53,958 nucleotides of DNA from Minisyncoccota bacterium (GTDB taxonomy: Bacteria > Patescibacteriota > Minisyncoccia > Phycocordibacterales > PALSA-1337): the NCBI GenBank assembly GCA_035495115.1, contig DATJGJ010000014.1, positions 1 to 53,958 of the forward strand, in the 5' to 3' direction. Made by a program: the position numbers and the translations under genes. The number at the start of each line of letters is the position of its first letter. Position 1 is the first letter of the stretch. A model generated the notes under the pieces. That model was not told where the DNA came from and made no database searches. It saw only the letters and a list, made by a program, of their open reading frames with translations. Below are positions 16,039 through 53,958 of the stretch, one piece after another.

Positions 16039-16224
16039 GCCAGACTTGGATTCGACCGCGCCTCTCACTTCGCTACCCGCTCCGTTCGGGCTGGTCACCG
16101 GCTCGCACCCGTAGGCGTGCTCGCCTACGGACTCCGCTACGCTCCGTGTGCTCCGCCGTTCGAATCCTGCGCCTGTCATCACTCACTCACTTCGTTCGTT
16201 ACGTGCTGCCAGACTTGGATTCGA
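16039..16224 (-). mobile_element. Miniature palindromic element downstream of tRNA-Gln, bracketed by a 17-bp direct repeat of the tRNA 3' end
   Basis: gccagacttggattcga at 16039-16055 and 16208-16224; internal IR ggattcgacc...gttcgaatcc and hairpin ccgtaggcg-tgct-cgcctacgg. Confidence 0.6.
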
Positions 16225-16276
16225 ACCAAGATACACAGCTCCAGAGGCTGCGGTCCTACCATTAGACGATCTGGCA
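16206..16276 (-). tRNA. tRNA-Gln(CTG)
   Basis: TGCCAGA/TCTGGCA acceptor, GCAGC-CTCTGGA-GCTGT anticodon arm, CTTGGTTCGAATCCAAG T-arm. Confidence 0.93.
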
Positions 16277-16303
16277 ATTTCAAATACCCTTTACTTGGGT
16301 ACC

Positions 16304-16332
16304 TTGCAGAATAACCTAAAAAACAGTATAAA
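16304..16332 (+). promoter_or_regulatory. Sigma70-type promoter TTGCAG-17-TATAAA
   Basis: Exact 17-nt spacer; 25/31 identical to the promoter region at 17082-17112. Confidence 0.65.
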
Positions 16333-16357
16333 TCAAACAAAGGAGACCCTTAGAACA

Positions 16358-17011
16358 ATGAAAATCATTACCAACCCTATCGAGGCCCGCGAGGCTTTGA
16401 AACGGCACAGCATCCCCACCCATCTCTGGGATGGCGGGAATTACAAAACGATCGAACAGTTGATGGAAAGCTTAGAGACCGATGCGATCCAGCTCGAAGA
16501 GCATGACAACCATGGATCGAAGAGCTTAATTCTCCGTGTGAATGTCGTTGTTGCGCACATTCAAGTCTTCAAAGAAAACACTGACACGTGGCACAAGCTC
16601 TACGAGCACAGCGTTTTTTCGCCAAAAACGAATGAATGGAAAAGTCGGCAGCAGTTCAACGGCAGTGTCGCAGGAAAACCACTCCGATCTGAGCCCCTTA
16701 ACTCACAGGGTTTACTCACAGCAATCCAGCGTGAGATCGGTGAAGAACTAGGACAGACTGAACCGCGCTTCAAGCGCCCCGGTCACTACGAGCTTGTTCC
16801 TCGTCACCGCGAGACAGTGGTTGCCTGCGACTGTTATCCAGGGCTACCTGAACATTTCGTTCGCCAGCACTTCCGATGCCTCATTCATCCCAAATTGTAT
16901 CGCAAAAAATACGTTCATGTTGACGAAAAATCGCGACGTATCACAACCTTCAAGTGGGATCCGTTGATATGCCAAGAATACCCTGAGGATGAGATCGTCC
17001 TGGCCAACTGA
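16358..17011 (+). CDS. Hypothetical protein, possible NUDIX-like fold; paralog of the next gene
   Basis: SD AAGGAG before ATG 16358; IPTHLW...KTIEQL and AIQREIGEELG (NUDIX-box-like). Confidence 0.7.
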   Translation: MKIITNPIEAREALKRHSIPTHLWDGGNYKTIEQLMESLETDAIQLEEHDNHGSKSLILRVNVVVAHIQVFKENTDTWHKLYEHSVFSPKTNEWKSRQQFNGSVAGKPLRSEPLNSQGLLTAIQREIGEELGQTEPRFKRPGHYELVPRHRETVVACDCYPGLPEHFVRQHFRCLIHPKLYRKKYVHVDEKSRRITTFKWDPLICQEYPEDEIVLAN

Positions 17012-17043
17012 CACCAGCGAGTCGAGCTTTACACTTAACTCGC

Positions 17044-17068
17044 ACCCTGTAGCAATACAGGGTTTTTT
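17044..17068 (+). terminator. Rho-independent terminator
   Basis: accctgta-gcaa-tacagggt followed by a T-run. Confidence 0.8.
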
Positions 17069-17083
17069 ATTTGATATATAGCC

Positions 17084-17112
17084 TTGCGCAATCACGTAAA
17101 AAACGCTATAAA
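17084..17112 (+). promoter_or_regulatory. Sigma70-type promoter TTGCGC-17-TATAAA
   Basis: Exact 17-nt spacer; homologous to 16302-16332. Confidence 0.65.
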
Positions 17113-17162
17113 AGCAAGCGGACTTCGCAGTAAACCAAAACCAAATAATGGAGGAAACGATT

Positions 17163-17819: not shown

Positions 17820-17843
17820 CATACATACTTTTTGTGTAAACAC

Positions 17844-17874
17844 ACCGCGCTTCAGCACTGAAGCGCGGTTTTTT
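17844..17874. terminator. Terminator between convergent genes
   Basis: accgcgcttcag/ctgaagcgcggt followed by TTTTT. Confidence 0.8.
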
Positions 17875-17917: not shown

Positions 17918-19618
17918 TTATTTACCCTTTCTCTTCTTGGCCGCTTTCATAAACTCCGTAAAGAGCGGATGCGGTGCGAGCGGTCGTGCCAAGAACTCAG
18001 GGTGGAACTGTGTGCCAAGGAAAAACGGATGCACCGAACGAGGGAGCTCGGCGATCTCCATGAGAGTACCGTCAGGCGACTTGCCCGAGAACACCAGACC
18101 AGCATCTTCTATCTGCTGTATATACTCTGGATTGACCTCATAGCGGTGACGATGGCGCTCCTCGATCTTGTCGGTACCATATGCTTCATGGGCCACACTA
18201 CCCTTCATGAGCTTTGCAGGATACCTACCGAGACGCATCGAGCCTCCATAGTCACCTTCAGCAATTTTTTTCTTTTGGTCAGGCATGATGTCGATGATGA
18301 CATGCTTTGCTTTTGGATCGATCTCCGCAGTATGTGCCCCCGCGAGACCGATGACATTGCGAGCGTACTCTATCGTCAACAACTGCATGCCGTAGCAGAG
18401 GCCAAAGTATGGAATCTTATTTTCACGACAATATCTGATAACATTGAGCTTGCCTTCGATACCGCTCTCGCCGAAACCACCTGGCACGATGATACCATCG
18501 AACTGATCGAGCGCAGAATAGTCAGGCTTCTTGCCTTCAAAATCGCGCGAATTGACCGTATGGATGACCGGCTTAACCTTATTGGCATATCCTGAGAACT
18601 TTATCGCCTCCAAGACAGAGATATAGGCGTCAGTCAGCACAAAGTCTCCTGTATTAAAATATTTACCTACAATGGCGATATTGAGCGTATGTTCATTGAA
18701 ATTCTTTATGCCTTTAGCGAACCTCTTCCACTCATCGAATGTTGGTCCCATCTTCCTTTCAGGCAGACTGAGCGAGTTCATGAGGATCTCGGCGAGCTGA
18801 TCTTTCTCAAAGTTGACCGGCACATCGTATATGCTCTCTATGTCTGGCGCTGATATGACATGCTCAGTTGGTATATTACACGAGATTGCTATCTTCTCTT
18901 TGCGACGATGATCGAGCGGTGTTTCAGCACGAGCAATGATAAAATCTGCATTGACGCCATATGAAGCCAGCTGACGCGCAGCATTTTGCGTTGGACGCGA
19001 CTTCATCTCACCGAGCTTACCTGGTGTCGGCAAATATGAAACCATGATAAACACCACATCTGCAGGGCGTTTCATCTTGAGCATACGAGCTGCTTCGATG
19101 AACATGACGTTCTGATAGTCGCCGATCGTGCCGCCGATCTCGACGATAGATATATCTGACTCATTGAGCTTCGCAGCATGCTCAAAACGATGAACGATCT
19201 CATCACGGATATGTGGTATTGCCTCGACGCACTTCCCGCCATATTTGAGCGCGCGCTCTTTTTCAATAACTTCCCTGTAGATCATCCCTGATGTCATATA
19301 ATCATATTCGCTCGCGTCCCGATTGAGGAAGCGTTCGTAGTTTCCCATGTCCTGATCAGTCTCAAGCCCGTTATTTAAAACAAAAACCTCACCGTGCTCG
19401 GTGGGGTTCATAGTGCCTGCGTCGACGTTGAGATAAGGATCGACTTTGACGAGATTGATGCGGAAGCCTTTGGCAGAGAGGACGGTGCCGATCGAAGAGG
19501 TGGCGATGCCCTTGCCTACTCCCGACATCACGCCGCCGATGACGAAGATGTACTTGTGGGGAGATTTGGGGATCTTGCTCGCAATCTTGTCTGCGACCTT
19601 GGCCGGCTTCTTGTTCAT
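17918..19618 (-). CDS. pyrG: CTP synthase
   Basis: KYIFVIGGVMSGVGKG, DPYLNVDAGTMNPTEHGEVFV, PGGFG, GLCYGMQ, ERHRHRYE, QFHPE; real start ATG 19618. Confidence 0.98.
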   Translation of the reverse strand: MNKKPAKVADKIASKIPKSPHKYIFVIGGVMSGVGKGIATSSIGTVLSAKGFRINLVKVDPYLNVDAGTMNPTEHGEVFVLNNGLETDQDMGNYERFLNRDASEYDYMTSGMIYREVIEKERALKYGGKCVEAIPHIRDEIVHRFEHAAKLNESDISIVEIGGTIGDYQNVMFIEAARMLKMKRPADVVFIMVSYLPTPGKLGEMKSRPTQNAARQLASYGVNADFIIARAETPLDHRRKEKIAISCNIPTEHVISAPDIESIYDVPVNFEKDQLAEILMNSLSLPERKMGPTFDEWKRFAKGIKNFNEHTLNIAIVGKYFNTGDFVLTDAYISVLEAIKFSGYANKVKPVIHTVNSRDFEGKKPDYSALDQFDGIIVPGGFGESGIEGKLNVIRYCRENKIPYFGLCYGMQLLTIEYARNVIGLAGAHTAEIDPKAKHVIIDIMPDQKKKIAEGDYGGSMRLGRYPAKLMKGSVAHEAYGTDKIEERHRHRYEVNPEYIQQIEDAGLVFSGKSPDGTLMEIAELPRSVHPFFLGTQFHPEFLARPLAPHPLFTEFMKAAKKRKGK

Positions 19619-19786
19619 GGAGCTAAGTATATAATATTCAGTAACCGGGAGACAATGACAAAATATATTACAAATTAAAATTACTAAATATACAAATAGT
19701 CTCAGTGGCGTGCGTATATGTGCAGCGGTTTTGGTCAAGGTGGAACATAAAACATTCGGGCCTGTATGCCTCCAACAAAATCGAGA

Positions 19787-19843
19787 TGACGAACTTTTTC
19801 CGTCAGTCCTTATTTTAAGCCAGTGACGAAATTTCTTCGTCAC
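19787..19843 (-). repeat. Dispersed twin-hairpin repeat, copy A (copy B at 42567-42622, opposite strand)
   Basis: Reverse complement aligns to 42567-42622 with 6 mismatches and 1 gap over 57 nt. Confidence 0.85.
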
Positions 19844-23049: not shown

Positions 23050-23173
23050 AATTCGGATCGAGAGAATTCTTGTAGCGAAGCTGCAAGAATTTCGAGACCA
23101 GAATTACCTTTCGAAGGGAATTCGGATCAAAAGATTTATTTTAGCGAAGCTGAAATAAATTTTTGACCGAATT
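23050..23173. repeat. Tandem pair of ~55-nt hairpins with GCGAAGC apex
   Basis: Units 23050-23105 and 23119-23173 share their ends and apex; stem changes are compensatory. Confidence 0.85.
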
Positions 23174-30209: not shown

Positions 30210-30782
30210 TTAGCGAGTAGTATTAGTCATGAGCTCTTGTAAACGAATCTCATTTGGGATTGATCCATCTGTCCACTGTACGATAACTGTCACTATTGTT
30301 TCTGTACTGCCGTCGCCTACTGGCGTAAAGTAAAAATAACGCATAAACGGACTCGCATGGTATGAACCATTCGGCGTACCAGAAACTATTGGATAGTAGT
30401 AGTTTATTGCAGCATTGACTGACAGCTGGCATGTCGACGTTATATCACACTGCATAACATTTGCGTTCTCTAAACCACTACTGTAGTAACTTGGCACATC
30501 AGGTGTCGTGCACGGATTGTTTTTTGAAGTACATGAGCTATAGTTGAGTCCTTTGAGCCATGGAGTTCCCGTAACTGAAGCATTATTATCTTTGATATTT
30601 TTGATCGACTCCATACCATCCTGTGCGAGATACGTTGCGATCATAGCATTGCGCGACCCAAGCGCGGCAGTGAGAGCTTTATTGGCGACCGTGAGCGGTC
30701 CTGCGATAGCAACCATGAGGATAGCGATGGCTACGAGCGTCTCGACAAGAGTAAAACCTTTTTGTGTATGTTGTGTATTCAT
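30210..30782 (-). CDS. PilV-like minor pilin
   Basis: QKGFTLVETLVAIAIL, ATYLAQDGMESIKN; start ATG 30782. Confidence 0.85.
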   Translation of the reverse strand: MNTQHTQKGFTLVETLVAIAILMVAIAGPLTVANKALTAALGSRNAMIATYLAQDGMESIKNIKDNNASVTGTPWLKGLNYSSCTSKNNPCTTPDVPSYYSSGLENANVMQCDITSTCQLSVNAAINYYYPIVSGTPNGSYHASPFMRYFYFTPVGDGSTETIVTVIVQWTDGSIPNEIRLQELMTNTTR

Positions 30783-30786
30783 ATGA

Positions 30787-31449
30787 TTATCCTTGTGAGC
30801 GCTCAGATATGCTCGTCTGGACATCAAAGACCGACTGATCTTTGACCTTTGTGCCTACATATCCATAGAGACGGATGAAAACCCAGCTATACGGCGTCGA
30901 TCCAGTACCGCCGTACACACCCACTTTATAATCCTGGATTTTCACACCACTTGAAGTGACTGGAAAGAATGGTGCACTATTGCCGCCAATGTTGATGCCT
31001 TGGCCTGTAGAGGTTTCCTCTGCTTTGAATATAGTCACTATCCCATCTGATGATACATGAAACAGATATGCGTAGACGAGTTCACCACCTGAAGGATCAG
31101 TATTTGAAGGATTGAAAGAAATGATAGCATCGCCTCCCGTACCTGAACTACATGTGCCATTGAGGTTGCTTGGCGTATTGGTATATAGATCAGGACCTGT
31201 GACGCACTTAAATGCCGTACCCACGCGCATTTCACGACTGATAGCATCGAGTATAAAACTGACATTGTTCACCCCTGACTGTATCGCTTGCGCTTGCTTG
31301 TTGGCACTGGTGACACGGACGAGTGCACCAACCGCTATGACTGCCACGATAGAAAAGATACCGAGAGACACGATGATCTCAATGAGAGTGAAGCCTCGTT
31401 TTTTTTCAACTATTTTTTTATGTATAGGCATTGAGTGGATCATAGGCAT
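30787..31449 (-). CDS. PilW-like minor pilin
   Basis: KRGFTLIEIIVSLGIF, ILDAISREMRVG. Confidence 0.85.
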   Translation of the reverse strand: MPMIHSMPIHKKIVEKKRGFTLIEIIVSLGIFSIVAVIAVGALVRVTSANKQAQAIQSGVNNVSFILDAISREMRVGTAFKCVTGPDLYTNTPSNLNGTCSSGTGGDAIISFNPSNTDPSGGELVYAYLFHVSSDGIVTIFKAEETSTGQGINIGGNSAPFFPVTSSGVKIQDYKVGVYGGTGSTPYSWVFIRLYGYVGTKVKDQSVFDVQTSISERSQG

Positions 31450-31452
31450 GTA

Positions 31453-32052
31453 TTAGTTACCAACTGATATTTGTCCGTTCTTTCTGATATAGACGACTTC
31501 ACTGTGACTGTTATCAGCTGAGGTCAGAGTGATGAAAGCTATAGGCTGGGTGTTAAGTCCAGGGGTACCGTTCGACGTCACGGTGAATATCGCATTCGGG
31601 TTTGGACGTTTGTATGTAACATCGAGAATATCATTTGGCCCAAGAACATTTGAACCAGTACAATTATCGATGGTTGTAGCGAGGCATATCTGGGTGATTT
31701 TTGCTCCTTGAGTGATGGCATATGTCGTGATTGCTTCCCCACTACCAATGCCGTCATATCTGTTGGCATTTGATCCTGAGTTACTGATATCAGCAAAAAA
31801 AGTGAAGTGTGTCGTATCATTGCCTGCAAAATCGATACCGTATGCAGCATTAAAGTTATCTGTGCTCGCATCTGCACTCTTTACGCTCAAACCATATGTC
31901 TGAGCTGTGCGAATCGTCAGAGCCATATCATATGCAATGTTGGTGAGGAGCGTACCTTGGTTGAAGCTACCATAGCGAGCGATGACAAGAGCAGTCATTG
32001 CGGCGAAAATCGCGATAGAGATGATGAGTTCAATGAGAGTAAATCCTTTCAT
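31453..32052 (-). CDS. FimU/GspH-like minor pilin
   Basis: MKGFTLIELII, IRTAQTYGLSV; TATAAT 6 nt before ATG 32052. Confidence 0.85.
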   Translation of the reverse strand: MKGFTLIELIISIAIFAAMTALVIARYGSFNQGTLLTNIAYDMALTIRTAQTYGLSVKSADASTDNFNAAYGIDFAGNDTTHFTFFADISNSGSNANRYDGIGSGEAITTYAITQGAKITQICLATTIDNCTGSNVLGPNDILDVTYKRPNPNAIFTVTSNGTPGLNTQPIAFITLTSADNSHSEVVYIRKNGQISVGN

Positions 32053-32059
32053 GTGCATA

Positions 32060-32878: not shown

Positions 32879-32881
32879 GGA

Positions 32882-33403: not shown

Positions 33404-33461
33404 GAGTAAATTATAACGTCAAATGAGGATTTATGGAAGCATGCTTACATGAAATCCGAAT

Positions 33462-33491
33462 GCAGACGATATATGAGCGCAGCGAATATAG
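33462..33491. repeat. 30-nt dispersed repeat, copy 2, inside an imperfect IR
   Basis: Matches 4084-4113; contains GAGCGCAGCGA; flanked by ggaagcatgct/agcatgactttcc. Confidence 0.6.
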
Positions 33492-33507
33492 CATGACTTT
33501 CCATATG

Positions 33508-33539
33508 CAAACCACCCGCTCACTCGAGCGGGTGGTTTG
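33508..33539 (-). terminator. Hairpin after the probable major pilin gene
   Basis: Perfect 14-bp IR caaaccacccgctc/gagcgggtggtttg. Confidence 0.7.
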
Positions 33540-33558
33540 GTAAAATGTTAATTTTTAA

Positions 33559-41731: not shown

Positions 41732-42526
41732 ATGAACATACTCAGGATTATGTATGAAACGATTCTCGAAGCGCTTTTTCCTTTATCTGAGACTGAAAAG
41801 GAGCTTTTTTCATGTCGGCCGTGTGATATTTCAAGTATTTTACCGCCATCACCGAATTATTCGGGCCTTGCAGTACCATTACCTGAAGGCACGTCGCTAT
41901 TTGCCTATAAAGACACGAGAGTTGAGCAGCTTATCTGGAACATCAAGTACAAGAAGTCCAGGCAGGCTGTTGAGATTGGTGGATATGAGTTGTTTGGAAA
42001 ATTATGTGAAATAAATATGGTGGCACCTGCTTCAGATTTTCAGGACACGCCGTCAAAGCCTGCTGGCTTTGCGGCTGGTTCTCAGTCGCCTACGCTCCTT
42101 CCGAAACGTCCTTCAAATTCCGAAGCAGGTGCCACTCGACTACTTATAATTCCCATTCCAATTACAAAGCTACGCCGACGCGAACGTGGGTATAATCAGT
42201 GCGAATTGTTGGTCGATGAGGTGGAACGATTGGATAAAGAAGCTAAATTTATTTCTGAAAATAACTTACTCATTCGTATGCATCATGATGGGCGGCATAC
42301 ATTAAAAGGACGCACGGACAGAGTCGAGAGCGCCAAAGGGATATTTGGAGTAGATGAAAGTACACTGAAAAAACTGACAGAAAAATATGGCGCAGATAAG
42401 ATTAAAAACTGTAAGGTAGTGATCATCGACGATGTTATTACAACCGGCAGCACCATGCGAGAAGCTATCGACACCATGAAAAAATCCGGATTCACGAATG
42501 TGTCCGGACTTTCAGTGGCACATTAA
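41732..42526 (+). CDS. comF: ComF family phosphoribosyltransferase-like competence protein with a ~39-aa insertion
   Basis: LIWNIKYK, IPIP...RRRERGYNQ, IDDVITTGST. Confidence 0.88.
   Translation: MNILRIMYETILEALFPLSETEKELFSCRPCDISSILPPSPNYSGLAVPLPEGTSLFAYKDTRVEQLIWNIKYKKSRQAVEIGGYELFGKLCEINMVAPASDFQDTPSKPAGFAAGSQSPTLLPKRPSNSEAGATRLLIIPIPITKLRRRERGYNQCELLVDEVERLDKEAKFISENNLLIRMHHDGRHTLKGRTDRVESAKGIFGVDESTLKKLTEKYGADKIKNCKVVIIDDVITTGSTMREAIDTMKKSGFTNVSGLSVAH
42020..42135. mobile_element. In-frame palindromic insertion in comF
   Basis: Perfect 14-bp terminal IR gtggcacctgcttc/gaagcaggtgccac; internal hairpin caaagcc-tgct-ggctttg; reading frame stays open. Confidence 0.75.
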
Positions 42527-42566: not shown

Positions 42567-42622
42567 GTGACGAAAAATTTCGTCAGTGGCTCAAAATATG
42601 GACTGACGAAGAAAGTTCTTCA
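42567..42622 (+). repeat. Dispersed twin-hairpin repeat, copy B
   Basis: gtgacgaaaaatttcgtca...ctgacgaagaaagttcttca; homologous to the reverse complement of 19787-19843. Confidence 0.85.
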
Positions 42623-44682: not shown

Positions 44683-45012
44683 ATGGCACCATCCCCTACA
44701 CATAAAGCAGGAACGAGAGATATGCATTCAACGAAAACCTGCCCTATCGCAGAGGTAGCAGAGCTTTTGTCGGATACATGGACGATGCTCATCATCCGTG
44801 ATCTTCTCAAAGGGCCAATGCGCTTTTGCGAGCTCGAGCGATCACTCGAAGGAGTCAGCACCCGCACACTCACTCTCAAGCTCAAGAAGCTGATGACAGA
44901 AAAAGTAATATCGAAAGAAGAGGAGTCCCACTACTACTCAATCACCAAACAAGGCATGCACCTCGGTGCTGTTATCGATGCGATGAGAGATTACGGTAAA
45001 GCCTATCTATAA
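44683..45012 (+). CDS. HxlR/DUF24 family winged-helix regulator
   Basis: CPIAEVAELLSDTWTMLIIRDL, GVSTRTL..KLK; start 44683 chosen from TAGCCT-6-ATG (44677 also possible). Confidence 0.9.
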   Translation: MAPSPTHKAGTRDMHSTKTCPIAEVAELLSDTWTMLIIRDLLKGPMRFCELERSLEGVSTRTLTLKLKKLMTEKVISKEEESHYYSITKQGMHLGAVIDAMRDYGKAYL

Positions 45013-45073
45013 AAAATCAAAACACTACAATAGCACTATGGCTACATTGTAATATCTGATACGACAGTGCAAA

Positions 45074-47533
45074 ATGTTCATTAATAACATGAGCTTAAAA
45101 CGCATATTCAGTTCGCCATGGACCATAAGTGCCCTAAGTGGCATCGCTCTTATCCTAATTAATTGGTCAGATTTCTATTTGTATTGGAGCTCGCCATTTA
45201 TCCAGGGATGGGATGGTCAGGGACATGCATCTATTGGTGAATACTATTCTGATCACATTTTTCCAAGCACCTGGGGCTGGGTCAGCCAGTGGTATGCAGG
45301 TATGCCATTCCCACAATTCTACCCCCCGTTATTTTATTTTGTCATGGCAATATTCCATCATATTTTGCCATTTATATCTTATATCACCACCTTCAAAGCA
45401 TTTGTCATCATTTTACAATTATCACTTCCAGCTGCGCTCACATTCTTCGTAGCTCACAGAAAAAAAAGTGTTTCAGCACTATGGTTTACTGGAATCTTTT
45501 CTGTGCTTCTCACATCTTCTCACTATGATATTTTTGGCGGGTATGGCATGAATACCATGTCTACTTTTCACACCGGAATGATCGCTCAATTACTCGGTTT
45601 TGTATTTCTCATCGCCTGGTTGCATTATTTTCTGCAAATCGAACAGAACATCCGTGCCCGTTACCTCAGTATCTTATTTCTTTTTCTTACTTTTCTTGCC
45701 AATGCACATAACGACATAGTTACCTTCCTCATATTTGTCACAATATTCTTACACTCTTTTGTGCCTCTCATAGTGAAGATGATAAAAAAAGAAGAGTGGT
45801 ACAAAAAGGAACACTGGTTGCATGCACTTAAACTGTTTCTTTTATATTTTCTGTGCGGAGCCATCCCCCTTATCGCTACCTCATTTTGGACGGTACCTCT
45901 TTTATACACTTATACATATTTCGTAACAGGGTCATTGTTTAGTGGACCCAGCGTTTCAAGCCTGCTCATGTCAGTCTGGCTACTGCCTTTCATAGCAATG
46001 ATTGTTTTTTTTGTTCACAAAAAAATAAAGAACAGAGATGCTCTTATACTCATGACATCCATACTCCTTGTAGTAGCACTTACCTATCTACCAAATATTT
46101 ATCATTTAGCTATACCGACACACATCAACCGTTGGTTCGGTGTGGTGATATTCATGTTACCGATCGTATGTGGCCTCATATATGATGACTTCCTCCTTAT
46201 AATCGATAGGTTCATAAAGCACCGTATCCTCATATTTATACTTGGAATCATCATAATATTTGTAGGAACCGGAAGCTATCGAATTGAGAATTCAAATGGT
46301 TTTTATTTTAATTACGATAAAGATCATTTTGATCAAATCGTGTCATACATACAGTCAAATAAAAAAGATCTCGGCATCACCGCAGTAGAAAGTGTTGAAG
46401 TTACGGATACGCCAAAAATGTTCATATATGATTCGATATTTGGTCAGTACGGCGATGGGGCGGCCACGTTTGTATTGAGAGAATCATCGATAAACTCTCT
46501 TTTTATGACACCTATCAGAAACTCTATCTCGCTTGACCATGAGAGTTGGGGGCTTGTGAGCTTTCTTGTCTTCAATGATCATTTCTTGAAACAAAATATC
46601 ACAGATGATCTCGATCGTGCCGAAAAGGCAGGGATACAATCTTTCTTTGTCAGATCAAAGTACACTAAAGATCTGCTCAATTCAGATCAACGAATATCAT
46701 TGAAAGCGACATTTGGAAACTGGCAACTATTTGCTTTCAAGACAAAAACCGTTCGCGCAGAAATATTTTCATATAAACCTATCGTATTTTATGGCAATCT
46801 GACATTCAAAGACAGATGGAATACAGACTACGATTGGAATCGCTTACAGGAAGAGCTTTTATTCTGGAATAAAAAAAAGATTATCCTCTCATATGCTTCG
46901 AATCAACTGCTTGATACGAGTACTGATCTTTATTTAGCTTCAACAACAGTCATAACTTCATATCACTATATAGATGAAATTACTGCCGCAAGAAAACTAA
47001 TATCTTATTCTAAAACAAATCACTTGATACTTGTTGCCGAGCGCGACCCTCTTTTCTTCAAGATAAAAGACATATATCTATCGAGCAGTACAACTAAAAA
47101 ATACAACATAACACTTGTCGATCATTTGAGTAACGGTATCATTGATGATGATCCTCTAGAAAATCAGCTTGGCACAGTATTCGCAAATATGGAACATAAC
47201 GATCTCTATCCGTACACTACGGATATCCACATCAAAGATACACATATAAGCGACTCTCGAATACAGGTAGAGTTAAGCGGCACCTCAACTGTCCCGCTAC
47301 CGATACTGGTAAAAACTAGTTATTTCCCAGCATGGCAACGTGCTGATAATGAACCCATATACCTGGGTTCGTCAGCATTCATGCTTACATATGCCACGAG
47401 CAGCTTTGAGATAAACTTCACTACACCGACTTATGTGAAAATTGGCTGGTATATTTCTTTTATAGTCTTAATTGGAACAGTTATTTTATACTATTTTGAT
47501 AGACGCCAGAAGAGAGATTGGTTCGTATCTTGA
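45074..47533 (+). CDS. Large polytopic membrane protein, GT-C fold (PTPS-related family), probable glycosyltransferase
   Basis: WDGQGH..W.WV..WYAGMPFPQFYPPL, about 12 TM segments, extracellular domain, SYFPAW near the C-terminal TM. Confidence 0.75.
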   Translation: MFINNMSLKRIFSSPWTISALSGIALILINWSDFYLYWSSPFIQGWDGQGHASIGEYYSDHIFPSTWGWVSQWYAGMPFPQFYPPLFYFVMAIFHHILPFISYITTFKAFVIILQLSLPAALTFFVAHRKKSVSALWFTGIFSVLLTSSHYDIFGGYGMNTMSTFHTGMIAQLLGFVFLIAWLHYFLQIEQNIRARYLSILFLFLTFLANAHNDIVTFLIFVTIFLHSFVPLIVKMIKKEEWYKKEHWLHALKLFLLYFLCGAIPLIATSFWTVPLLYTYTYFVTGSLFSGPSVSSLLMSVWLLPFIAMIVFFVHKKIKNRDALILMTSILLVVALTYLPNIYHLAIPTHINRWFGVVIFMLPIVCGLIYDDFLLIIDRFIKHRILIFILGIIIIFVGTGSYRIENSNGFYFNYDKDHFDQIVSYIQSNKKDLGITAVESVEVTDTPKMFIYDSIFGQYGDGAATFVLRESSINSLFMTPIRNSISLDHESWGLVSFLVFNDHFLKQNITDDLDRAEKAGIQSFFVRSKYTKDLLNSDQRISLKATFGNWQLFAFKTKTVRAEIFSYKPIVFYGNLTFKDRWNTDYDWNRLQEELLFWNKKKIILSYASNQLLDTSTDLYLASTTVITSYHYIDEITAARKLISYSKTNHLILVAERDPLFFKIKDIYLSSSTTKKYNITLVDHLSNGIIDDDPLENQLGTVFANMEHNDLYPYTTDIHIKDTHISDSRIQVELSGTSTVPLPILVKTSYFPAWQRADNEPIYLGSSAFMLTYATSSFEINFTTPTYVKIGWYISFIVLIGTVILYYFDRRQKRDWFVS

Positions 47534-48215
47534 GCAAATCTTTGAACATCTTTTGTGATGAACGAAAAGGTTTGAGATTTCCATTATTATTGTGTGACCA
47601 GGTAACACCTATCTCGGCGATACTCAGTTTTTTTGCTTGAGCAATGGCGAGCACTTCAGTATCAAAAGCTAGCCCAGATATAGTCATAAGAGGAAAAATC
47701 TCTTCAATCGCCCTTTTGTTGAACATCTTTAGTCCACACTGGCTGTCGTTAATGGTTTGCTTCAGCAGCATTTTACGCAGAAAATTATATGTTTTACTCA
47801 TGAATCGTCGGATAAGTGGAAACGGCACAGGTACATTGCTTCCTGACACATATCGAGATGCAATCACGATATCGCTGGTTTCAATATGTGTGTACAGAGA
47901 CAAGATCTCATCTAAACTCGCAGAAAAATCAACATCAGTGAATACTGTATGTGGCGCCTTACTTGCACTCATTCCAGTTTTAACCGCAAAGCCTTTACCT
48001 TTATTTTCTTTGTATGAAATAAGTACTATGCGAGAGTCTGGATGTAGTTCATTATAGACATGTATTTGTGAGGCGGTATCATCAGATGACCCGTCGTCGA
48101 CAAAGATAACTTCCTGCATAAGTTCAGGATACCTTTCTACAAAATCTGTCACTGTTTCCAATGCGCGACCAATACGCCGACTCTCATTGAAGACTGGCAC
48201 CACGATCGAGATCAT
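47481..48215 (-). CDS. GT2 polyprenyl-phosphate glycosyltransferase (Dol-P-Glc synthase/GtrB-like)
   Basis: SIVVPVFNE, DDGSSD, NKGKG.AV, FTDVD, DSQCGLK, FDTEVL. Confidence 0.9.
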   Translation of the reverse strand: MISIVVPVFNESRRIGRALETVTDFVERYPELMQEVIFVDDGSSDDTASQIHVYNELHPDSRIVLISYKENKGKGFAVKTGMSASKAPHTVFTDVDFSASLDEILSLYTHIETSDIVIASRYVSGSNVPVPFPLIRRFMSKTYNFLRKMLLKQTINDSQCGLKMFNKRAIEEIFPLMTISGLAFDTEVLAIAQAKKLSIAEIGVTWSHNNNGNLKPFRSSQKMFKDLLKIRTNLSSGVYQNSIK

Positions 48216-48220
48216 AAATA

Positions 48221-48736
48221 TTAAGGGTTACTCACTGTACCGCCACCGATAATGTTATTAACGCTTATTGAAGGTGAAAATGTATTTGATCCTATAAGAA
48301 TACCTTCAGTGTAATTGGGCACTGAAGCACTGCTCTTTGATTCCGAAACGTACATGACTATACCCGCTTTAGCATTTCCTGACGTAACGTCAGTTTGATA
48401 ATAATAAACGTACTGACCTTGGTTTAAAGGATCTTGAAGTACTTTGCTGATATACCCACCTGTTACAAGAGCATTGAGTGCCGAAGTAAAGTTTGCGCCT
48501 GTACAAGTTGTTGTTGGGCATGGTGGGTAACCGTTATGATCTAGATCATACAGAGCAAGAGCATTTCTGAGTTGAACCATATCTGAAGTACGATTTGCGT
48601 CTCTTCCCTTTGCACGAGCTATATTGGTAGAAGTAAGGATAACAGAAGAAAGCAGTGATATGATGGCTATAACAACAAGCAACTCGATGAGGGTAAAGCC
48701 TTTTTGATGTTGAATATGTGATGGAGTATGTTTCAT
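48221..48736 (-). CDS. Type IV pilin (orphan, outside the main pil locus)
   Basis: QKGFTLIELLVVIAIISLLSS, RDANRTSD, QDP; Ser/Thr/Asn-rich. Confidence 0.9.
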   Translation of the reverse strand: MKHTPSHIQHQKGFTLIELLVVIAIISLLSSVILTSTNIARAKGRDANRTSDMVQLRNALALYDLDHNGYPPCPTTTCTGANFTSALNALVTGGYISKVLQDPLNQGQYVYYYQTDVTSGNAKAGIVMYVSESKSSASVPNYTEGILIGSNTFSPSISVNNIIGGGTVSNP

Positions 48737-48740
48737 ATGT

Positions 48741-49007
48741 TTACTGGATGCTTTTAGACTGTATGAACTCTTCGGGCGTTATCAACCCATTTTGATAATT
48801 AAATGAGTGGTACAAAATAACTGCTCCCACAATAAAAACCCCAATAAGTATCAACAAAAAAACATTTGCCTGATTCTCATTCTTTACGATATTTTTATTA
48901 ATTAAAAAACTAACGATGCTTGGTTTCTTTGCACTTGCTTGAAAGCGCGCATACAAAAGATGCCCCTGTGCTCCCTGATTGTCTCCATCAAATTCAATGT
49001 TACTCAT
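48741..49007 (-). CDS. Small membrane protein
   Basis: VSFLINKNIVKNENQAN followed by one TM; 4 nt from the pilin start, same strand. Confidence 0.7.
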   Translation of the reverse strand: MSNIEFDGDNQGAQGHLLYARFQASAKKPSIVSFLINKNIVKNENQANVFLLILIGVFIVGAVILYHSFNYQNGLITPEEFIQSKSIQ

Positions 49008-49113
49008 GAGAATAAAGTTAAGAGATAAATAATATATTGTTTTTTATTATATGCAATAAATTCACATAATCATACTGAACTATGGGGATATCACAACATG
49101 ATATAATTGCCAC

Positions 49114-49545
49114 ATGCATACCCCGTTCCAAGCAGGATTTCTGAAAATGAGTAAATTTGGCACTAGCGGAATCATTGCCACAGGTACAAATATAAGTGTT
49201 TTGTACTTACTGACATCTAAAATCGGATTCTGGTATATAACTTCTACCATATTTGCGTTCATCACTGCATTTATAGTTAGTTTTACGCTTCAAAAATACT
49301 GGGTGTTTGGGAATAGGGATAACGCAGTAATATATAAACATGCGAGTTCATTCTTTATTGTTGCTATAATAAATCTCATTCTCAACACTTTTCTTATGTA
49401 TATCTGTGTTGAATATATTCGACTGGAATATATCGCATCCCAAGTGATCGTGAGCGGTATGATCGCCTACGAAAGCTACTTTCTCTACAGAAAAATATTT
49501 GCAATGCAATATAAAAAATTACTTATAAAAAACCACCTCACATAA
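49114..49545 (+). CDS. GtrA family flippase
   Basis: KFGTSGIIAT, SFTLQKYWVF, four TM segments. Confidence 0.88.
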   Translation: MHTPFQAGFLKMSKFGTSGIIATGTNISVLYLLTSKIGFWYITSTIFAFITAFIVSFTLQKYWVFGNRDNAVIYKHASSFFIVAIINLILNTFLMYICVEYIRLEYIASQVIVSGMIAYESYFLYRKIFAMQYKKLLIKNHLT

Positions 49546-49556
49546 GGTGATTTTTT
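49527..49556. terminator. Bidirectional terminator
   Basis: aaaaaaccacct/aggtgatttttt between convergent genes. Confidence 0.6.
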
Positions 49557-49578
49557 GATTTAGCTAAGGCTTATTATC

Positions 49579-49899
49579 TTACTGAGCTGGCGTGTGCGGA
49601 TGATTGCCATGATGATCCTCGTCGTGATTCGTGTGACCGTGGCGCTTCTTGTGCCACTCTTTGACGAAGAAGATAATATAGACTGCTTCGAGGATACCGG
49701 CGGTGTTCAAGATAAGGAGAGCGATGAACCACCACTTCTCATCGCGCTTTGCGGCATGCCAGAGCGCATAACCCTTGAGGGCAATGACTAGGGCAAAGAA
49801 GACAGCGGCGAGAATGCCGAGCAAAATCATGCCTGGACCAAAGCCGTAGCCCCACGGAGAGCCATACATATGACCGTAACCAAATGTTGAATACATCAT
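49579..49899 (-). CDS. DUF5652-like membrane protein with a His-rich tail
   Basis: KGYALWHAAKRDEKWWFIALLILNTAGILE. Confidence 0.8.
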   Translation of the reverse strand: MMYSTFGYGHMYGSPWGYGFGPGMILLGILAAVFFALVIALKGYALWHAAKRDEKWWFIALLILNTAGILEAVYIIFFVKEWHKKRHGHTNHDEDHHGNHPHTPAQ

Positions 49900-50014
49900 A
49901 ATAATATTGAGATTAGCTGATATGTCCCTATTCTACCACATATTATTTAGTCAAATTACAGGTTATAATTGATATATAGGGTATTTAAAATCAGTAATTT
50001 ATAACAATACTATT

Positions 50015-50434: not shown

Positions 50435-50457
50435 TATCCATAACGCTGAAATAATAT

Positions 50458-50925: not shown

Positions 50926-50952
50926 AATAGAAAACCTTTTCTCATCCCTCAC

Positions 50953-51009
50953 GTGACGTGCGCAGGCACGTCACTCGCTTCCTTGCTCACTCACTACGTT
51001 CGCTCGCTG
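50953..51009 (-). repeat. Palindromic/GNA-motif element just downstream of tRNA-Ser(GCT)
   Basis: gtgacgtgc-gcag-gcacgtcac hairpin; ctcactcactacgttcg matches 16182-16198 at 16/17. Confidence 0.7.
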
Positions 51010-51096
51010 CGGAACCGGAGGGATTCGAACCCTCGAGGCCCGTTAAGGCCTGCCTCTTTAGCAAAGAGGTATGTTAGACCACTCCACCACGGTTCC
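51010..51096 (-). tRNA. tRNA-Ser(GCT)
   Basis: GGAACCG/CGGTTCC, CCTCT-TTGCTAA-AGAGG, long variable arm, G73. Confidence 0.92.
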
Positions 51097-51124
51097 AGTC
51101 GAGCTATTCTGGCATAAAATGCAA

Positions 51125-51601
51125 CTAATTCAAAGTCCAAATAGCGTAGTTGAGAAATGCGGCGAAAGTGACCCAAGCGATATATGGAACAAGCAGATAC
51201 CCTGCAAGCTTGGATATCTTGAAGAATGCGATAATCGTCGCCAATATAGCGATCCAGAGAAAGAGTATTTCTACAAATGCCCCACCAGGGTTATGCGCGC
51301 CAAAGAAGATGATAGACCAGCATACGTTAAGAATGAGTTGCGCCAAAAAAAGAGCGACGGCAATCTTTACATCTCTTTGAGCGAGACCTTTTTGCCAGAC
51401 AAGAAAGAGCGCGATGCCCATGAGAGCAAAGAGCGTTGTCCATACTGGCCCGAAAATCCAGTTTGGCGGAGAGAACGTCGGCCTGATGATATCTGCGTAC
51501 CACGTCGTGATCGAGGAAACTGTGAAGAATGACCCGACTATACCTGCGAGCTCAGACAATACGATCGCAGATACGAGTTTGAGAGATGTTTTTATATTCA
51601 T
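51125..51601 (-). CDS. tspO: TspO/MBR family protein
   Basis: WYADIIRP.FSPPNWIFGPVWT, LVPYIAWV.FA..LN. Confidence 0.93.
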   Translation of the reverse strand: MNIKTSLKLVSAIVLSELAGIVGSFFTVSSITTWYADIIRPTFSPPNWIFGPVWTTLFALMGIALFLVWQKGLAQRDVKIAVALFLAQLILNVCWSIIFFGAHNPGGAFVEILFLWIAILATIIAFFKISKLAGYLLVPYIAWVTFAAFLNYAIWTLN

Positions 51602-51706
51602 GATTCAATTGTATATCATTGCGCATTTTTTGTCTGATTGTTGTAAATTGGTGCCATTTTCCGTATAGTATGTGAGTTCTCAGATATATTATTGAGGACC
51701 GCACAT

Positions 51707-51793
51707 GGAGAGATGGCTGAGTGGTTTAAGGCAGCGGTTTACTAAACCGCCGTTCCCTCACGGGAACCGTGGGTTCGAATCCCACTCTCTCCG
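51707..51793 (+). tRNA. tRNA-Ser with unusual anticodon ACT
   Basis: GGAGAGA/TCTCTCC, GCGGT-TTACTAA-ACCGC, long variable arm gttccc-tcac-gggaac, G73. Confidence 0.9.
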
Positions 51794-51808
51794 CAGAAAA
51801 AACTTGAG

Positions 51809-52672
51809 ATGACAATCCCTGCTTTCATCAAAATCGTCAGCATATTCTACAAAAAGAATAAGCGCGACATGCCATGGCGCACCGACACAAACCCCTACTA
51901 CATCGTGGTCTCTGAGATTATGCTCCAACAGACGCAAGTACACCGCGTCACCGGCAAATTCGATTCATGGATCAAGCGCTTCCCCGACTGGCAAACGCTG
52001 GCAAAAGCCTCGACAAAAGATGTTCTCCAAGAATGGTCAGGGCTTGGGTACAATAGGCGCGCGCTTTTCTTGAAGAGGATCGCTGAGACTATTACCGATA
52101 ATGGAAGAACGGGAGGTGTCCTACCGAAAACTGTCGACGAACTAACACAGCTCCCTGGTATCGGACCAAATACGGCCGGCTCTATTCTTGCTTTTGCATT
52201 CAACATTCCACACCCTTTCATTGAGACCAATATCCGTTCAGTCTATATCCATCATTTCTTTGCTGAGATAGAAAAGGCTGAAGGCAAAAAAGCGTGTAAA
52301 AAGATCAGTGATACTCAAATCATGCCTTTAATTGAAAAAACACTAAAGAATAAAAATATCACTCGCAATCCTCGTGAATGGTACTGGGCGCTCATGGACT
52401 ACGGGTCATATCTGAAAAAGAATATTCCTAACCCTTCTCGTAATAGCGTACATCATGTGAAGCAGAAGGCTTTCAAGGGTTCCAACCGCGAGCTGCGCTC
52501 GAAAATATTAAAGATCATCATGAAACAATCTTTGACGAGTGAAATGATTGAGAAACAGTTGAAGAAAGGGGCACCGGCGTACACGGGTGAACAAATAAAA
52601 AAGAATGTGGAAGGGCTTATGAAAGAGGGGTTTATTGCTCAGACAGGCAAAAAATATAAAATCAGCCTATAA
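51809..52672 (+). CDS. mutY: MutY-like HhH-GPD glycosylase lacking the 4Fe-4S motif
   Basis: RDMPWR, VSEIMLQQTQV, W.GLGYNRRA, LPGIGPNTA, ALMDYG. Confidence 0.88.
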   Translation: MTIPAFIKIVSIFYKKNKRDMPWRTDTNPYYIVVSEIMLQQTQVHRVTGKFDSWIKRFPDWQTLAKASTKDVLQEWSGLGYNRRALFLKRIAETITDNGRTGGVLPKTVDELTQLPGIGPNTAGSILAFAFNIPHPFIETNIRSVYIHHFFAEIEKAEGKKACKKISDTQIMPLIEKTLKNKNITRNPREWYWALMDYGSYLKKNIPNPSRNSVHHVKQKAFKGSNRELRSKILKIIMKQSLTSEMIEKQLKKGAPAYTGEQIKKNVEGLMKEGFIAQTGKKYKISL

Positions 52673-52680
52673 TTAAGCCC

Positions 52681-53958
52681 ATGCCCGTCATCACTCCTGA
52701 AATCACTGTCTCTGAATATTTCCGCCTGACGCCCATCCAAAAAGACGCCTTGAAAAAAATAGGCATCACCACGCTCCGCGACCTCCTATATCATTTCCCC
52801 GTCCGCTATGGCGACACAGCTGAAGCAAAAAATATCGAGACGCTCGGTAAGGGCGACACTGCAGTCATATTCGGCAAGATCACCAATCTCAAAGCGAGTA
52901 AAGGATTCAAGACGAAGATGACCATGGCGACAGCTACTGTCGAAGATGAAACTGGCAAGATCCAGTGCGTCTGGTTCAATCAACCCTATCTCGCAAAGAT
53001 GACACCAGAAGGTGCGATGGTTCGCATAGAGGGAAAGGTTTCGGAAAGAAGAAAAAAGGAGACGAACAAAGTACCCCCAGAAACTTCTTTTTCTGAGCGT
53101 AGCGGTAGCGAAGCGAGTTACGCAGCGAATGAAAAAGAAGTTTCTGTGGGTGCTGCCCGTCTCTATTTCTCCAACCCTAAAATCGAAGTAGTCGACAAGC
53201 TCCCTATCGGCGTTGGAGACTCCCTCTTCGGCGATACTGGCGAAGCTCATACCCTTTACCCCGTTTACCCCGAGTCGCGAGGCATTACGTCGAGCTGGAT
53301 GTACCACGCCATCCAAAAGCTTTTCAAAAGCGGTCTCCTCGACAACATGATCGACGTACTCCCAGGACACCTTCTCGTCAAATATCATCTGCCGAGCCTC
53401 AAGACCGCGCTCATCTGGATGCACACTCCCCTCAAACGCGAAGATGCGCTCTCTGCTCGCAAGCGCTTTTCATTTGAAGAGATATTTATCATTCAGCTCG
53501 GCAAACAGCAAGCTCGCAGAGAATATGAGAAACATCCGGCCTTCGTCATAGAAGCGGACGATGTCCATGTCCGTGAATTCATTAAGCGTTTTCCCTTCAC
53601 CGCCACTGAAGCACAAACGAAGGCAGTCGAGACTATCCTTGGTGATATGCGCCGTGAATATGCCATGTCGCGTCTCCTCGAAGGCGACGTAGGCTCGGGC
53701 AAGACAGCGGTGGCAGCTTCTGCAGCATATGCCATCATCACCTCGCGTCCACCGAAAGTCCCTCGTCTCGCTGGTTCGAACCCAAATCCACTTGCCAAAG
53801 GATCTGCGACAGCTGGCCAAGGTAACCTCCAGGTAGCATACATGTGCCCAACAGAAATCTTGGCGACGCAGCATTTCGAATCATTCATCCAATACTTTTC
53901 GTATATGCCGATACAGATCGGCCTCATCACTGGTTCTGGTTGCCGCAAATTTCCTTCA
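52681..53958 (+). CDS. recG: ATP-dependent DNA helicase RecG, partial (runs off the window end; absent from the ORF track)
   Basis: My translation from ATG 52681: LLYHFPVRY, WFNQPYL, YPVYP, FEEIF, T.AQ, RLLEGDVGSGKT, QVAYMCPTEILATQH. Confidence 0.95.
   Translation, partial: MPVITPEITVSEYFRLTPIQKDALKKIGITTLRDLLYHFPVRYGDTAEAKNIETLGKGDTAVIFGKITNLKASKGFKTKMTMATATVEDETGKIQCVWFNQPYLAKMTPEGAMVRIEGKVSERRKKETNKVPPETSFSERSGSEASYAANEKEVSVGAARLYFSNPKIEVVDKLPIGVGDSLFGDTGEAHTLYPVYPESRGITSSWMYHAIQKLFKSGLLDNMIDVLPGHLLVKYHLPSLKTALIWMHTPLKREDALSARKRFSFEEIFIIQLGKQQARREYEKHPAFVIEADDVHVREFIKRFPFTATEAQTKAVETILGDMRREYAMSRLLEGDVGSGKTAVAASAAYAIITSRPPKVPRLAGSNPNPLAKGSATAGQGNLQVAYMCPTEILATQHFESFIQYFSYMPIQIGLITGSGCRKFPS
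53078..53146. mobile_element. In-frame 69-bp palindromic insertion in recG
   Basis: Perfect 16-bp IR cagaaacttctttttc/gaaaaagaagtttctg; the loop holds GCGTAGC and GCGAAGC; exactly 23 codons. Confidence 0.8.

Follow-up and report, generated by a model that had tools for sequence, protein, structure and literature searches.

The question raised by the stretch of DNA analysed here, the 53,958-nt contig DATJGJ010000014.1 of a Minisyncoccota bacterium (assembly GCA_035495115.1; hereafter the window), is whether the short palindromic and hairpin-forming segments in its tRNA flanks, its intergenic DNA and its comF and recG genes are copies of one mobile element. A preliminary description had listed six such elements and assigned them to a single non-autonomous family, capped by GCGNAGC mini-hairpins and recognised as single-stranded DNA (ssDNA), which adds new peptide loops to core proteins. 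The reading we favour, at a probability of about 60%, is that the insert in comF is a copy of a dispersed palindromic family specific to this lineage, here named family 1, and that the recG insert, the tRNA-linked inserts and the tRNA-Thr hairpins are of other kinds. The listed items represent at least three kinds of short non-coding insert, and several families rather than one; the earlier observation is partly confirmed and its interpretation partly supported. The palindromic inserts are real, and family 1 is a repeat family for which no published description was found, nor was one for the other elements, in a search of limited literature coverage that included the core motif as a text string.

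The window has ~46% G+C and nine tRNA genes, and its genes include type IV pilus genes, comF, recG, pyrG, ligA and prfB. The nearest homologues of its ComF and RecG proteins are all from metagenome-assembled genomes (MAGs) of Patescibacteria, Candidatus Taylorbacteria and Paceibacterota, which places the window in a Taylorbacteria-like member of the Paceibacterota within the candidate phyla radiation. The window was compared with loci from related genomes, which carry L numbers (L001, L200 and so on). Among these, L200 is a syntenic relative, with the order pil genes-comF-tyrS...recG and a RecG 81% identical to that of the window.

The comF insert has a conserved core at the tip of a copy-specific stem

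The element in comF is composed of the following parts (coordinates of the window).

42020..42135, + strand: family-1 palindromic element in comF (open reading frame, ORF, 41732-42526); 119.8 bits, E = 8e-32 with covariance model R1
42020..42040, + strand: left copy-specific arm, pairing with 42115-42135 (21-nt arms, 90% complementary)
42041..42111, + strand: conserved family-1 core, with 36 invariant columns over 22 copies
42115..42135, + strand: right copy-specific arm (21-nt arms, 90% complementary)

The comF core comprises a GGAC helix, the hairpin P3 (GCCG-T-CAAAGCC TGCT GGCTTTG-CGGC), single-stranded TGGTTCTC, the block CGCCTACGC and CCGAAACGTCC. It is translated as DTPSKPAGFAAGSQSPTLLPKRPS, and the whole insert adds 36 amino acids (aa) relative to an insertion-free relative.

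The same fold is found in all family-1 copies, with minimum free energies of -41 to -104 kcal/mol. An outer stem of 15-25 bp, specific to each copy, leads through a small internal loop to the core of ~70 nt, which is arranged as a GGGAC/GTCCC helix, P3, single-stranded TGGTTCTC, an optional hairpin P4 and CCGAARC. The P3 consensus is GCCG(T)C-N6-YTGSTR-N6'-GCGGC, in which the bulged T (column 32) is invariant. P4 (GGCCGC-CTAC-GCGGCC) is a second hairpin present in only a subset of copies, and in the L192 copy another small palindrome is nested within the loop of P4. The inner ~9 nt of the arms are semi-conserved; the outermost 10-20 bp of the stem differ between copies, the outer arms being only ~29-37% identical, which is near random.

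R1 was built on 22 family-1 copies. In the alignment of these copies, 36 columns are invariant, P3 is paired in 99.6% of cells with compensatory changes in 7 of its 11 pairs, and the whole structure is paired in 82% of cells, compared with 64% in shuffles. The covariation score of 0.49 (0.17 when shuffled) was reached by 0 of 500 shuffles, and it collapses if the partner columns are slid.

Family 1 is dispersed among Paceibacterota-type genomes

At least 26 copies are counted in 13 GTDB representative MAGs, one metagenome contig and the window. The species-level scan covered one genome per species (185,579 species) and used the two conserved family-1 blocks as exact anchors, which makes the copy numbers lower bounds. 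Among the matches listed, true copies occur only in Paceibacterota-type MAGs, some of which are labelled Saccharibacteria by an automated pipeline, and the remaining hits either arose by chance in genomes of high G+C or belong to a conserved protein motif that is unrelated. Five MAGs carry at least three to five copies on separate contigs, with at least five in JBAYIX01 and at least three each in JAVHOW01, CAYPPJ01, CAZRRZ01 and CAYTZE01. In addition, R1 gave 29 matches in 0.4 Mb of related loci, and no family-1 copy was found in viral contigs. By BLAST, the comF element matches the comF insert of L001 (85% over 81 nt) and an intergenic site of L005 between pilB-like and response-regulator genes (84% over 69 nt). 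The earlier claim of a non-autonomous repeat family is borne out by these further copies for the comF insert, but not for the six items together.

Family 1 is translated within unrelated core proteins

Nineteen family-1 copies lie in long ORFs and are read in only two frames, the sense DTPS frame (10 copies) or the antisense GRFG..EPAA..DGVS frame (9 copies). None of the 19 uses any other frame, so that two of the six are in use, and the sense RTRR frame is stop-free in 22 of 22 copies yet unused. This frame use indicates that the in-gene copies are translated. The hosts confirmed with Pfam are an ABC ATPase, DnaG primase, a SAM methyltransferase, tRNA-guanine transglycosylase (Tgt) and SecA (at two sites), to which ComF is added; ComF, SecA and the methyltransferase each have a site at which the element is found in either orientation. 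The proposal that new peptide loops are added to core proteins holds, as the core proteins in which copies stand in frame are unrelated to one another.

In an alignment of 29 ComF proteins, the insertion is found at one linker in some and is absent from many, and its conserved peptide reads DTPSxxAxxAAGSxSPSxxPKRPS. The AlphaFold model of the window ComF has a mean pLDDT of 86, with values of 52-58 for the insert, a coil, and 93-98 for its flanks. A profile of the 34-aa insert peptide returned just four hits from 1.84 billion cluster representatives, a search that carries no information, since an insertion-free protein often stands for the whole cluster at 50% identity.

A comparison with relatives for empty sites, as the preliminary description had proposed, yielded insertion-free orthologues for comF, recG, the tRNA-Ser flank and one intergenic copy. 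The ComF of L200 has 228 aa and is without exactly the 36 codons of the palindrome, both arms of the window element being extra relative to it. The junction between pilB and the response regulator gene is filled in L005 (162 nt) and measures 27 nt in the window and 7 nt in L200.

Strongly covarying helices would also be expected if the elements had a function as RNA, for example as a small RNA, as regulatory hairpins or as sites of processing by RNase III, and the intergenic copies starting a few bases past stop codons and the tRNA-Thr-type hairpins lying in tRNA leaders agree with this. About half of the in-gene copies, however, are antisense to the host mRNA, the frame use points to translation, G:U pairs are not in excess of A:C on the sense strand, and no Rfam family is matched even at E <= 10, which together make an RNA function very improbable. 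At gathering thresholds, only tRNAs pass in the whole window; at E <= 10, the comF element, the tRNA-Gln flank, the tRNA-Thr hairpins and the recG insert match only unrelated families below threshold, mostly miRNA precursors and snoRNAs. Hammerhead and other small ribozymes were considered by eye and rejected, as the CUGAUGA box is absent and GAAAC alternates with GAAGC.

The listed items are not one family

All strings quoted in the preliminary description are present where it had placed them, and three of its six structured elements are strong palindromes. When folded as ssDNA and compared with 200 shuffles each, the tRNA-Thr pair at 23050-23173, which consists of two tandem 69-nt hairpin units with a GCGAAGC apex, has a z-score of -8.4, comF (42020-42135) of -7.0 and recG (53078-53146) of -5.8; the two longest local inverted repeats of the window are the recG and comF palindromes. 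The other three do not qualify as strong palindromes. Segment 50953-51009 contains only a single 9-bp hairpin (z = -2.1), 16039-16224 contains one local 9-bp hairpin with an overall structure that is not significant (z = -1.4), and the remaining segment has no structure:

33435..33503, no strand: not an element; unstructured intergenic DNA between two pilin genes (fold z = +0.29)

No related copy of this segment was found. It has the 10-mer CGCAGCGAAT in common with the recG core, and its alignment is marginal (p = 0.01), with the recG core only.

The motifs said to tie the elements together were counted in the window and in 100 dinucleotide shuffles. GCGNAGC, whose enrichment had been proposed as a genome-wide test and was tested here in the window, is mildly over-represented (39 against 27.0 +/- 5.1 expected; at least 39 in 2 of 100 shuffles). 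GTAGCGAAG occurs three times against 0.29 expected, which was matched by 0 of 100 shuffles, and GAGCGTAG three times against 1.27, which is not significant (at least three in 17 of 100 shuffles). RAGCGAAS is not enriched window-wide (10 against 8.5 expected), and the 15 occurrences of TAGCGAAG in 315 kb of related loci, against ~9.6 expected, are unconvincing. Common 8-mers are a weak tie between all six elements.

The GCGNAGC mini-hairpin is not a unifying cap. GCGAAGC stands at the apex of a 12-bp stem only at 23075, 23144 and L102:5959, that is, in the tRNA-Thr-type hairpins; of the three apices named earlier, those at 23075 and 23144 stand, whereas the one in recG has a local stem of just 4 bp. 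The comF core is without GCGAAGC and has TGCT as its loop. A TGCT/AGCA-looped hairpin is indeed seen in both the tRNA-Gln and comF elements, but a common tetraloop alone is not significant.

When the six listed sequences were aligned pairwise (local alignment) against shuffles, the significant pairs were tRNA-Gln with tRNA-Ser, tRNA-Gln with the recG core, tRNA-Ser with recG and tRNA-Thr with recG (p <= 0.003). The comF core is not significantly similar to any other listed element (p = 0.12 to 0.94). Moreover, R1 finds the comF element alone in the window, and its score for recG (13.9 bits) is at the level of generic hairpins, which contradicts a single family of six.

These results bear on the mechanism first proposed, in which one family is moved as ssDNA by a HUH enzyme encoded elsewhere, an IS200/IS605 TnpA or a REP-associated tyrosine transposase (RAYT), with P3 and its bulged T as the recognition hairpin and GCGNAGC mini-hairpins nucleating the folding. 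The structure is conserved whichever way a copy is oriented to its host gene, column 32 of P3 is an invariant bulged T, conserved terminal inverted repeats and direct target duplications are lacking as in IS200/IS605 derivatives, and GCGNAGC is mildly over-represented. These features fit the mechanism, and a putative likeness of the bulged T to IS608 end hairpins is a lead only. The six items are nevertheless not one family, and GCGAAGC is at the apex only in the tRNA-Thr-type hairpins. No conserved tetra- or pentanucleotide lies beside the family-1 copies, because their outer arms are copy-specific. The absence of a mobilising enzyme from the window, as noted earlier, is supported: among the 20 ORFs scanned against Pfam there is no transposase, no integrase and no HUH gene. 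We consider this mechanism quite unlikely.

Chance or assembly artefacts could account for the insignificant count of GAGCGTAG, the lack of structure at 33435-33503 and a contig (L089) that resembles a fold-back chimera at the element. However, at least 14 assemblies, produced independently in different studies, contain the same core in frame and with the genes on either side intact, and fold z-scores go down to -8. An artefact is accordingly extremely improbable as a general explanation; it is largely refuted for comF, recG and the tRNA-Thr hairpins, and stands only for 33435-33503.

The RecG wedge loop is a hot spot for palindromic insertions

53070..53154, + strand: in-frame palindromic insertion in the RecG wedge-domain loop; arms of 24 nt, 92% complementary

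The arms of this insertion (53070-53093 and 53131-53154) enclose the core TGAGCGTAGCGGTAGCGAAGCGAGTTACGCAGCGAAT at 53094-53130. Most of the 120 closest RecG homologues have no insertion at the wedge loop, and the site is empty in L200; insertions are found in the window RecG and a minority of homologues, such as P0130, P0135, P0164, P0172 and P0178. A different palindrome occupies the loop in L128 and L203, whose RecG is 75% identical to that of the window, and its core has a P3-like hairpin (GCAAAGCC-AGCA-GGCTTTG; 40 bits with R1). The RecG wedge loop is a hot spot for palindromic insertions. No other copy of the window recG core was found in ~0.3 Mb of related DNA. Aligned with the 3' block of the tRNA-Gln insert, this core agrees at 20 of 24 positions (GAGCGTAGC-GGTAGCGAAGCGAG against GAACGGAGCGGGTAGCGAAGTGAG), and it appears to be related to the tRNA-linked inserts, not to family 1.

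Relative to the empty site of L200, the host bases on the left of the recG insert recur in inverted form at its right end. The inverted flank copies read CAGAAACT...AGTTTCTG in the window and GCAGAAAACG...CGTTCTTCTGC in L203, a hint that the flank was duplicated in inverted form or that the palindrome grew outward. An origin of the arms from the host flank was considered and set aside, as the recG loop is too variable for a firm alignment and both arms in ComF are extra compared with L200.

In a Taylorbacteria MAG (L204), a gene for a large serine recombinase (1242-2726; Resolvase, Recombinase and Zn_ribbon_recom domains) lies directly upstream of recG. This recG has a loop insert of its own, and a divergent family-1-like copy is present at L204:4056-4169.

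Inserts at tRNA genes are of two further kinds

The tRNA-associated features of the window are as follows.

16056..16207, - strand: tRNA-linked insert directly 3' of tRNA-Gln(CTG), ~150 nt, GC-rich, with the hairpin CCGTAGGCG-AGCA-CGCCTACGG
16039..16055, - strand: distal direct repeat (17 nt), a second tRNA-Gln 3' end that extends from the T loop to within the acceptor stem; identical to 16208-16224
16208..16224, - strand: proximal 17-nt repeat, the genuine tRNA-Gln 3' end (tRNA at 16205-16276)
50940..51008, - strand: 5' part (~70 nt) of a tRNA-linked insert directly 3' of tRNA-Ser(GCT), without a distal tRNA-end repeat
23050..23099, + strand: tRNA-Thr-type hairpin unit 1, 5' of tRNA-Thr(GGT) (minus strand), with the base AATTCGGATCGAGAGA / TTCGAGACCAGAAT
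23119..23168, + strand: second unit of the tRNA-Thr-type hairpins, in tandem with unit 1 (78% identity)

The tRNA-Gln element had been described with inverted-repeat ends, but its ends are 17-nt direct repeats. Corresponding repeats of the tRNA 3' end are found for tRNA-Ser in L001 (19 nt), tRNA-Glu in L192 (20 nt) and tRNA-Val in L102 (18 nt); they begin in the T loop and lie 128-155 nt or more downstream of the tRNA. The interiors of these inserts (128-165 nt) contain no ORF and no integrase. The tRNA-Gln insert and the tRNA-Ser insert of L001 have blocks in common at both ends, though their repeats match different tRNAs. The tRNA-Ser fragment of the window is 93% identical to the latter over 30 nt, after which a hairpin follows at the same position with a different stem and retained pairing. 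The tRNA-Ser flank is empty in L116, L005, L128 and L015. As far as can be read from the sequences, this layout is the signature of integration at a tRNA 3' end, without room for an integrase gene, and the tRNA-Gln and tRNA-Ser inserts, of ~130-165 nt, would be comparable to a miniature integrated element devoid of an integrase, in which the last 17-20 nt of the tRNA are duplicated.

The tRNA-Thr hairpins are a separate family, located 5' of tRNA genes. Their units combine a conserved base with a variable yet pairing mid-stem and the apex TAGCGAAGCT. Unit 1 is 88% identical to L102:5940-5989, which lies 5' of tRNA-Val, and a related copy is present at L088:1300-1350.

Two further observations concern the tRNA genes themselves. 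A tRNA-Ser with the anticodon loop TTACTAA and hence the anticodon ACT (A34) lies at 51707-51794 (+) and adjoins the normal tRNA-Ser(GCT) at 51009-51096 (-); the pair is kept in a related MAG (L128:4586-4673). A34 is unusual in bacterial tRNA-Ser. In addition, a 33-nt tandem duplication (97% identical, 11815-11880) is located on the 3' side of tRNA-Ile (11882-11955, -).

Family-1 cores resemble each other by genome, independently of the arms

Core identity is 0.906 between copies at different sites of the same genome, 0.818 between genomes where the host site is the same and 0.804 in the remaining comparisons, and the outer arms are ~0.3 identical in every comparison class. For example, the comF copies of L100 and L128 agree at 27 of 30 arm positions and only at 76% in their cores, and the L100 comF core is 98.6% identical to the dnaG copy of the same genome. 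With core likeness following the genome and the arms being independent of it, the core seems to undergo copying or homogenisation within genomes without involvement of the arms. It may transpose into stems that are already present, be converted from another copy, or be inserted first and acquire its stem by later growth.

In the reading we favour, family 1 would be selfish or neutral DNA that persists between genes and in translated surface loops of housekeeping proteins, where only the two frames with hydrophilic peptides would survive, DTPS..AAGS..PKRPS or, on the other strand, GRFG..EPAA..DGVS. Copy-and-paste or gene conversion would act within a genome on the core as the unit to be copied or homogenised, and the arms would remain at their site. 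We infer that within-strand templating keeps the arms complementary and that recombination between them can flip the element in place; mobility itself and the involvement of any enzyme are likewise deduced.

A stricter version is that the ~70-nt core alone is mobile and moves into, or is exchanged between, site-specific stem tips, or that insertion inverts and duplicates the flanking target. We regard this as unlikely, and to our knowledge no such mode of transposition or conversion is known in bacteria.

Several observations weigh against the favoured reading, in particular against its mobile component. No autonomous relative was seen in the fetched loci, and the 20 scanned ORFs of the window offer no candidate enzyme. 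No flanking direct repeat was found at the family-1 copies inspected, and no insertion polymorphism was seen between near-identical genomes, which gives no sign of recent movement. The in-gene copies occupy only ~7 sites that recur across genomes, which, on the sequence comparisons, would fit old, vertically inherited insertions as well as targeting, and the strong conservation of the core despite ComF identities of ~50% could reflect a host function instead of selfish spread. The counts of G:T and A:C mismatches identify no strand. Divergent subfamilies are under-sampled by the exact anchors, and the link between the recG core and the tRNA inserts depends on a 24-nt alignment in AGCG-rich sequence.

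Some of these points would be met by an old, immobile and vertically inherited family whose core is under selection for a DNA-level host function, for example as a protein-binding site, with the likeness of cores within a genome arising from co-evolution with the binding factor or from gene conversion. The recurrence of the same seven in-gene sites, a core identity of 80-90% where ComF is ~50% identical, and arms at orthologous sites that have diverged yet still pair (L141 and L163) are consistent with such a history. It is less easily reconciled with the at least five intergenic copies of JBAYIX01 at sites unoccupied elsewhere, one of which is empty in the window and in L200, and with the patchy presence of insertions among close ComF and RecG relatives, and a host function is hard to square with in-gene copies in either orientation. 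We hold immobility to be doubtful, and prefer the reading of a dispersed, lineage-specific repeat family.

Other features of the window and of related genomes

The distance between comF and recG is only ~2.4 kb in L200, which indicates that a low-G+C island, the tRNA-Ser pair and a DNA-glycosylase-like gene are extra in the window. The island (45000-50000; 36-39% G+C) encodes an 819-aa protein without a Pfam match, a GT2 glycosyltransferase, GtrA and a pilin-like gene, and the glycosylase-like gene lies at 51809-52672 and is MutY/Nth-like by eye. A type IV pilin N-terminal motif (GFTLIELI...) is common to six short genes at 30210-34092 and 48221-48736 and forms a 42-nt repeat family. The pyrG ORF as listed (17918-19843, -) reaches its CTP synthase domain only at residue 96, and its listed GTG start is probably too far upstream. 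Finally, a 48-nt inverted repeat pair (19787-19834 and 42575-42622; 88% complementary, 22.7 kb apart) is located in the spacer upstream of pyrG and just downstream of comF. Each copy has TGACGAA..TTCGTCA palindromes, and the pair could be an operator or another small repeat.

In the related genomes, the SecA of L092, which has a family-1 copy elsewhere, has a second, different palindromic in-frame insert (1688-1773) that reads ..VIPAKAGIQ..RLRWND.. and holds a small hairpin, CCCGC-GAAG-GCGGG, in each arm. In the 5-kb contig L089 (~4783-4850), what follows on the right of the element matches, in reverse complement, the upstream secA sequence of L160, probably a fold-back misassembly at the palindrome. 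Other long palindromes unrelated to family 1, with arms of 29-44 bp and spacers of 32-71 nt, were found in related MAGs at the following positions.

L003:473-624; L005:10658-10777; L081:5014-5132; L116:3058-3174: other long palindromes
L141:3395-3500; L180:1658-1794; L088:3357-3493; L160:1402-1529: other long palindromes

The one in L180 directly abuts a family-1 copy. With these additional palindromes, palindromic inserts look like a general trait of the lineage.

Comparison with known repeats

Rickettsia palindromic elements (RPEs) are short palindromic repeats that often stand in frame in unrelated genes and encode a peptide conserved within each family (PMC10969869). Family 1 is like them in being a non-coding palindromic repeat of ~100-150 bp with several copies per genome, in standing in frame in unrelated housekeeping genes with a conserved peptide, and in the tolerance of the extra segment. 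It differs in its host, a Paceibacterota lineage of the candidate phyla radiation (CPR), in the conservation of only the central ~70 nt next to copy-specific outer stems, in the clustering of cores by genome and in the occurrence of both orientations at one site. Since the phylum differs and the comparison is one of features, not of sequences, a resemblance to RPEs is claimed and not membership.

Like the bacterial MITEs (miniature transposable elements with inverted repeats) Correia, ERIC and BOX, family 1 is small, non-autonomous and structured, and occurs between and within genes. In classical MITEs the terminal inverted repeats are conserved, the target site is directly duplicated and a parent insertion sequence (IS) with the same ends can be recognised. 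Family 1, in contrast, has outer arms that are 29-37% identical and no target duplication at the inspected copies, and no parent IS was seen in the window ORFs or the fetched loci.

Repetitive extragenic palindromes (REPs) are 20-40 nt long, extragenic and typically high-copy, and REPINs, the hairpins formed by paired REPs, have conserved arms and a variable loop. Family 1 shares with REPs, REPINs and palindrome-associated transposable elements (PATEs) the GC-rich imperfect hairpins, a plausible recognition as ssDNA and the lack of terminal inverted repeats and target duplications. It differs from REPs and REPINs in its many intragenic copies, in a conserved centre instead of conserved arms and in the few copies detected per genome, which are minimum numbers. 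In IS200/IS605-derived PATEs, imperfect hairpins are subterminal at both ends, insertion is 3' of a fixed tetra- or pentanucleotide and the genome encodes a Y1 TnpA; in family 1, P3 is universal, P4 is present only in a subset and there is no fixed flanking tetranucleotide. The REP classification includes GTAG/CGTC tetranucleotides (PMC3733652), and CGTC and the complement of GTAG (CTAC) lie within the family-1 core. These tetranucleotides form the conserved head of REPs, and the RAYT gene of such systems is flanked by REPs.

Yeast mitochondrial GC clusters and the double-hairpin elements of Allomyces are GC-rich hairpin inserts in a genome of lower G+C, as are the inserts of the window. Integrative elements that target tRNA genes, and their integrase-less derivatives such as cis-mobilizable elements (CIMEs), are flanked by attL and attR. 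The tRNA-linked inserts similarly have at their borders a direct repeat, 17-20 nt long, that copies the tRNA 3' end, but their interior is only 128-165 nt and has no gene. In Nematomorpha mitochondria, long inverted repeats occur in translated genes, and both arms encode conserved protein (PMC6649704). Family 1 likewise consists of long inverted repeats embedded in translated genes; it is, however, defined by a common core, which the Nematomorpha palindromes are without, and its arms encode unconserved loop residues.

Implications for CPR genomes

The genomes of CPR bacteria are tiny and generally taken to be poor in repeats. The structured inserts in SecA, DnaG, Tgt, RecG and ComF suggest that selfish or neutral DNA reshapes core proteins of CPR bacteria, as RPEs do in Rickettsia. 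Among the lineage-specific "extra loops" and the small spurious ORFs annotated in CPR genomes, some are explained by such inserts, which are also likely to give rise to fold-back misassemblies. R1 and the peptide signatures DTPS..AAGS..PKRPS and GRFG..EPAA..DGVS provide a direct route to a census of family 1. Its layout, with a conserved core, site-specific arms, clustering of cores by genome and in-place flipping, offers a tractable case for the origin, persistence and homogenisation of palindromes in coding DNA. If the core alone proved to be mobile, nested, onion-like palindromes would be built inside essential genes across a CPR lineage.

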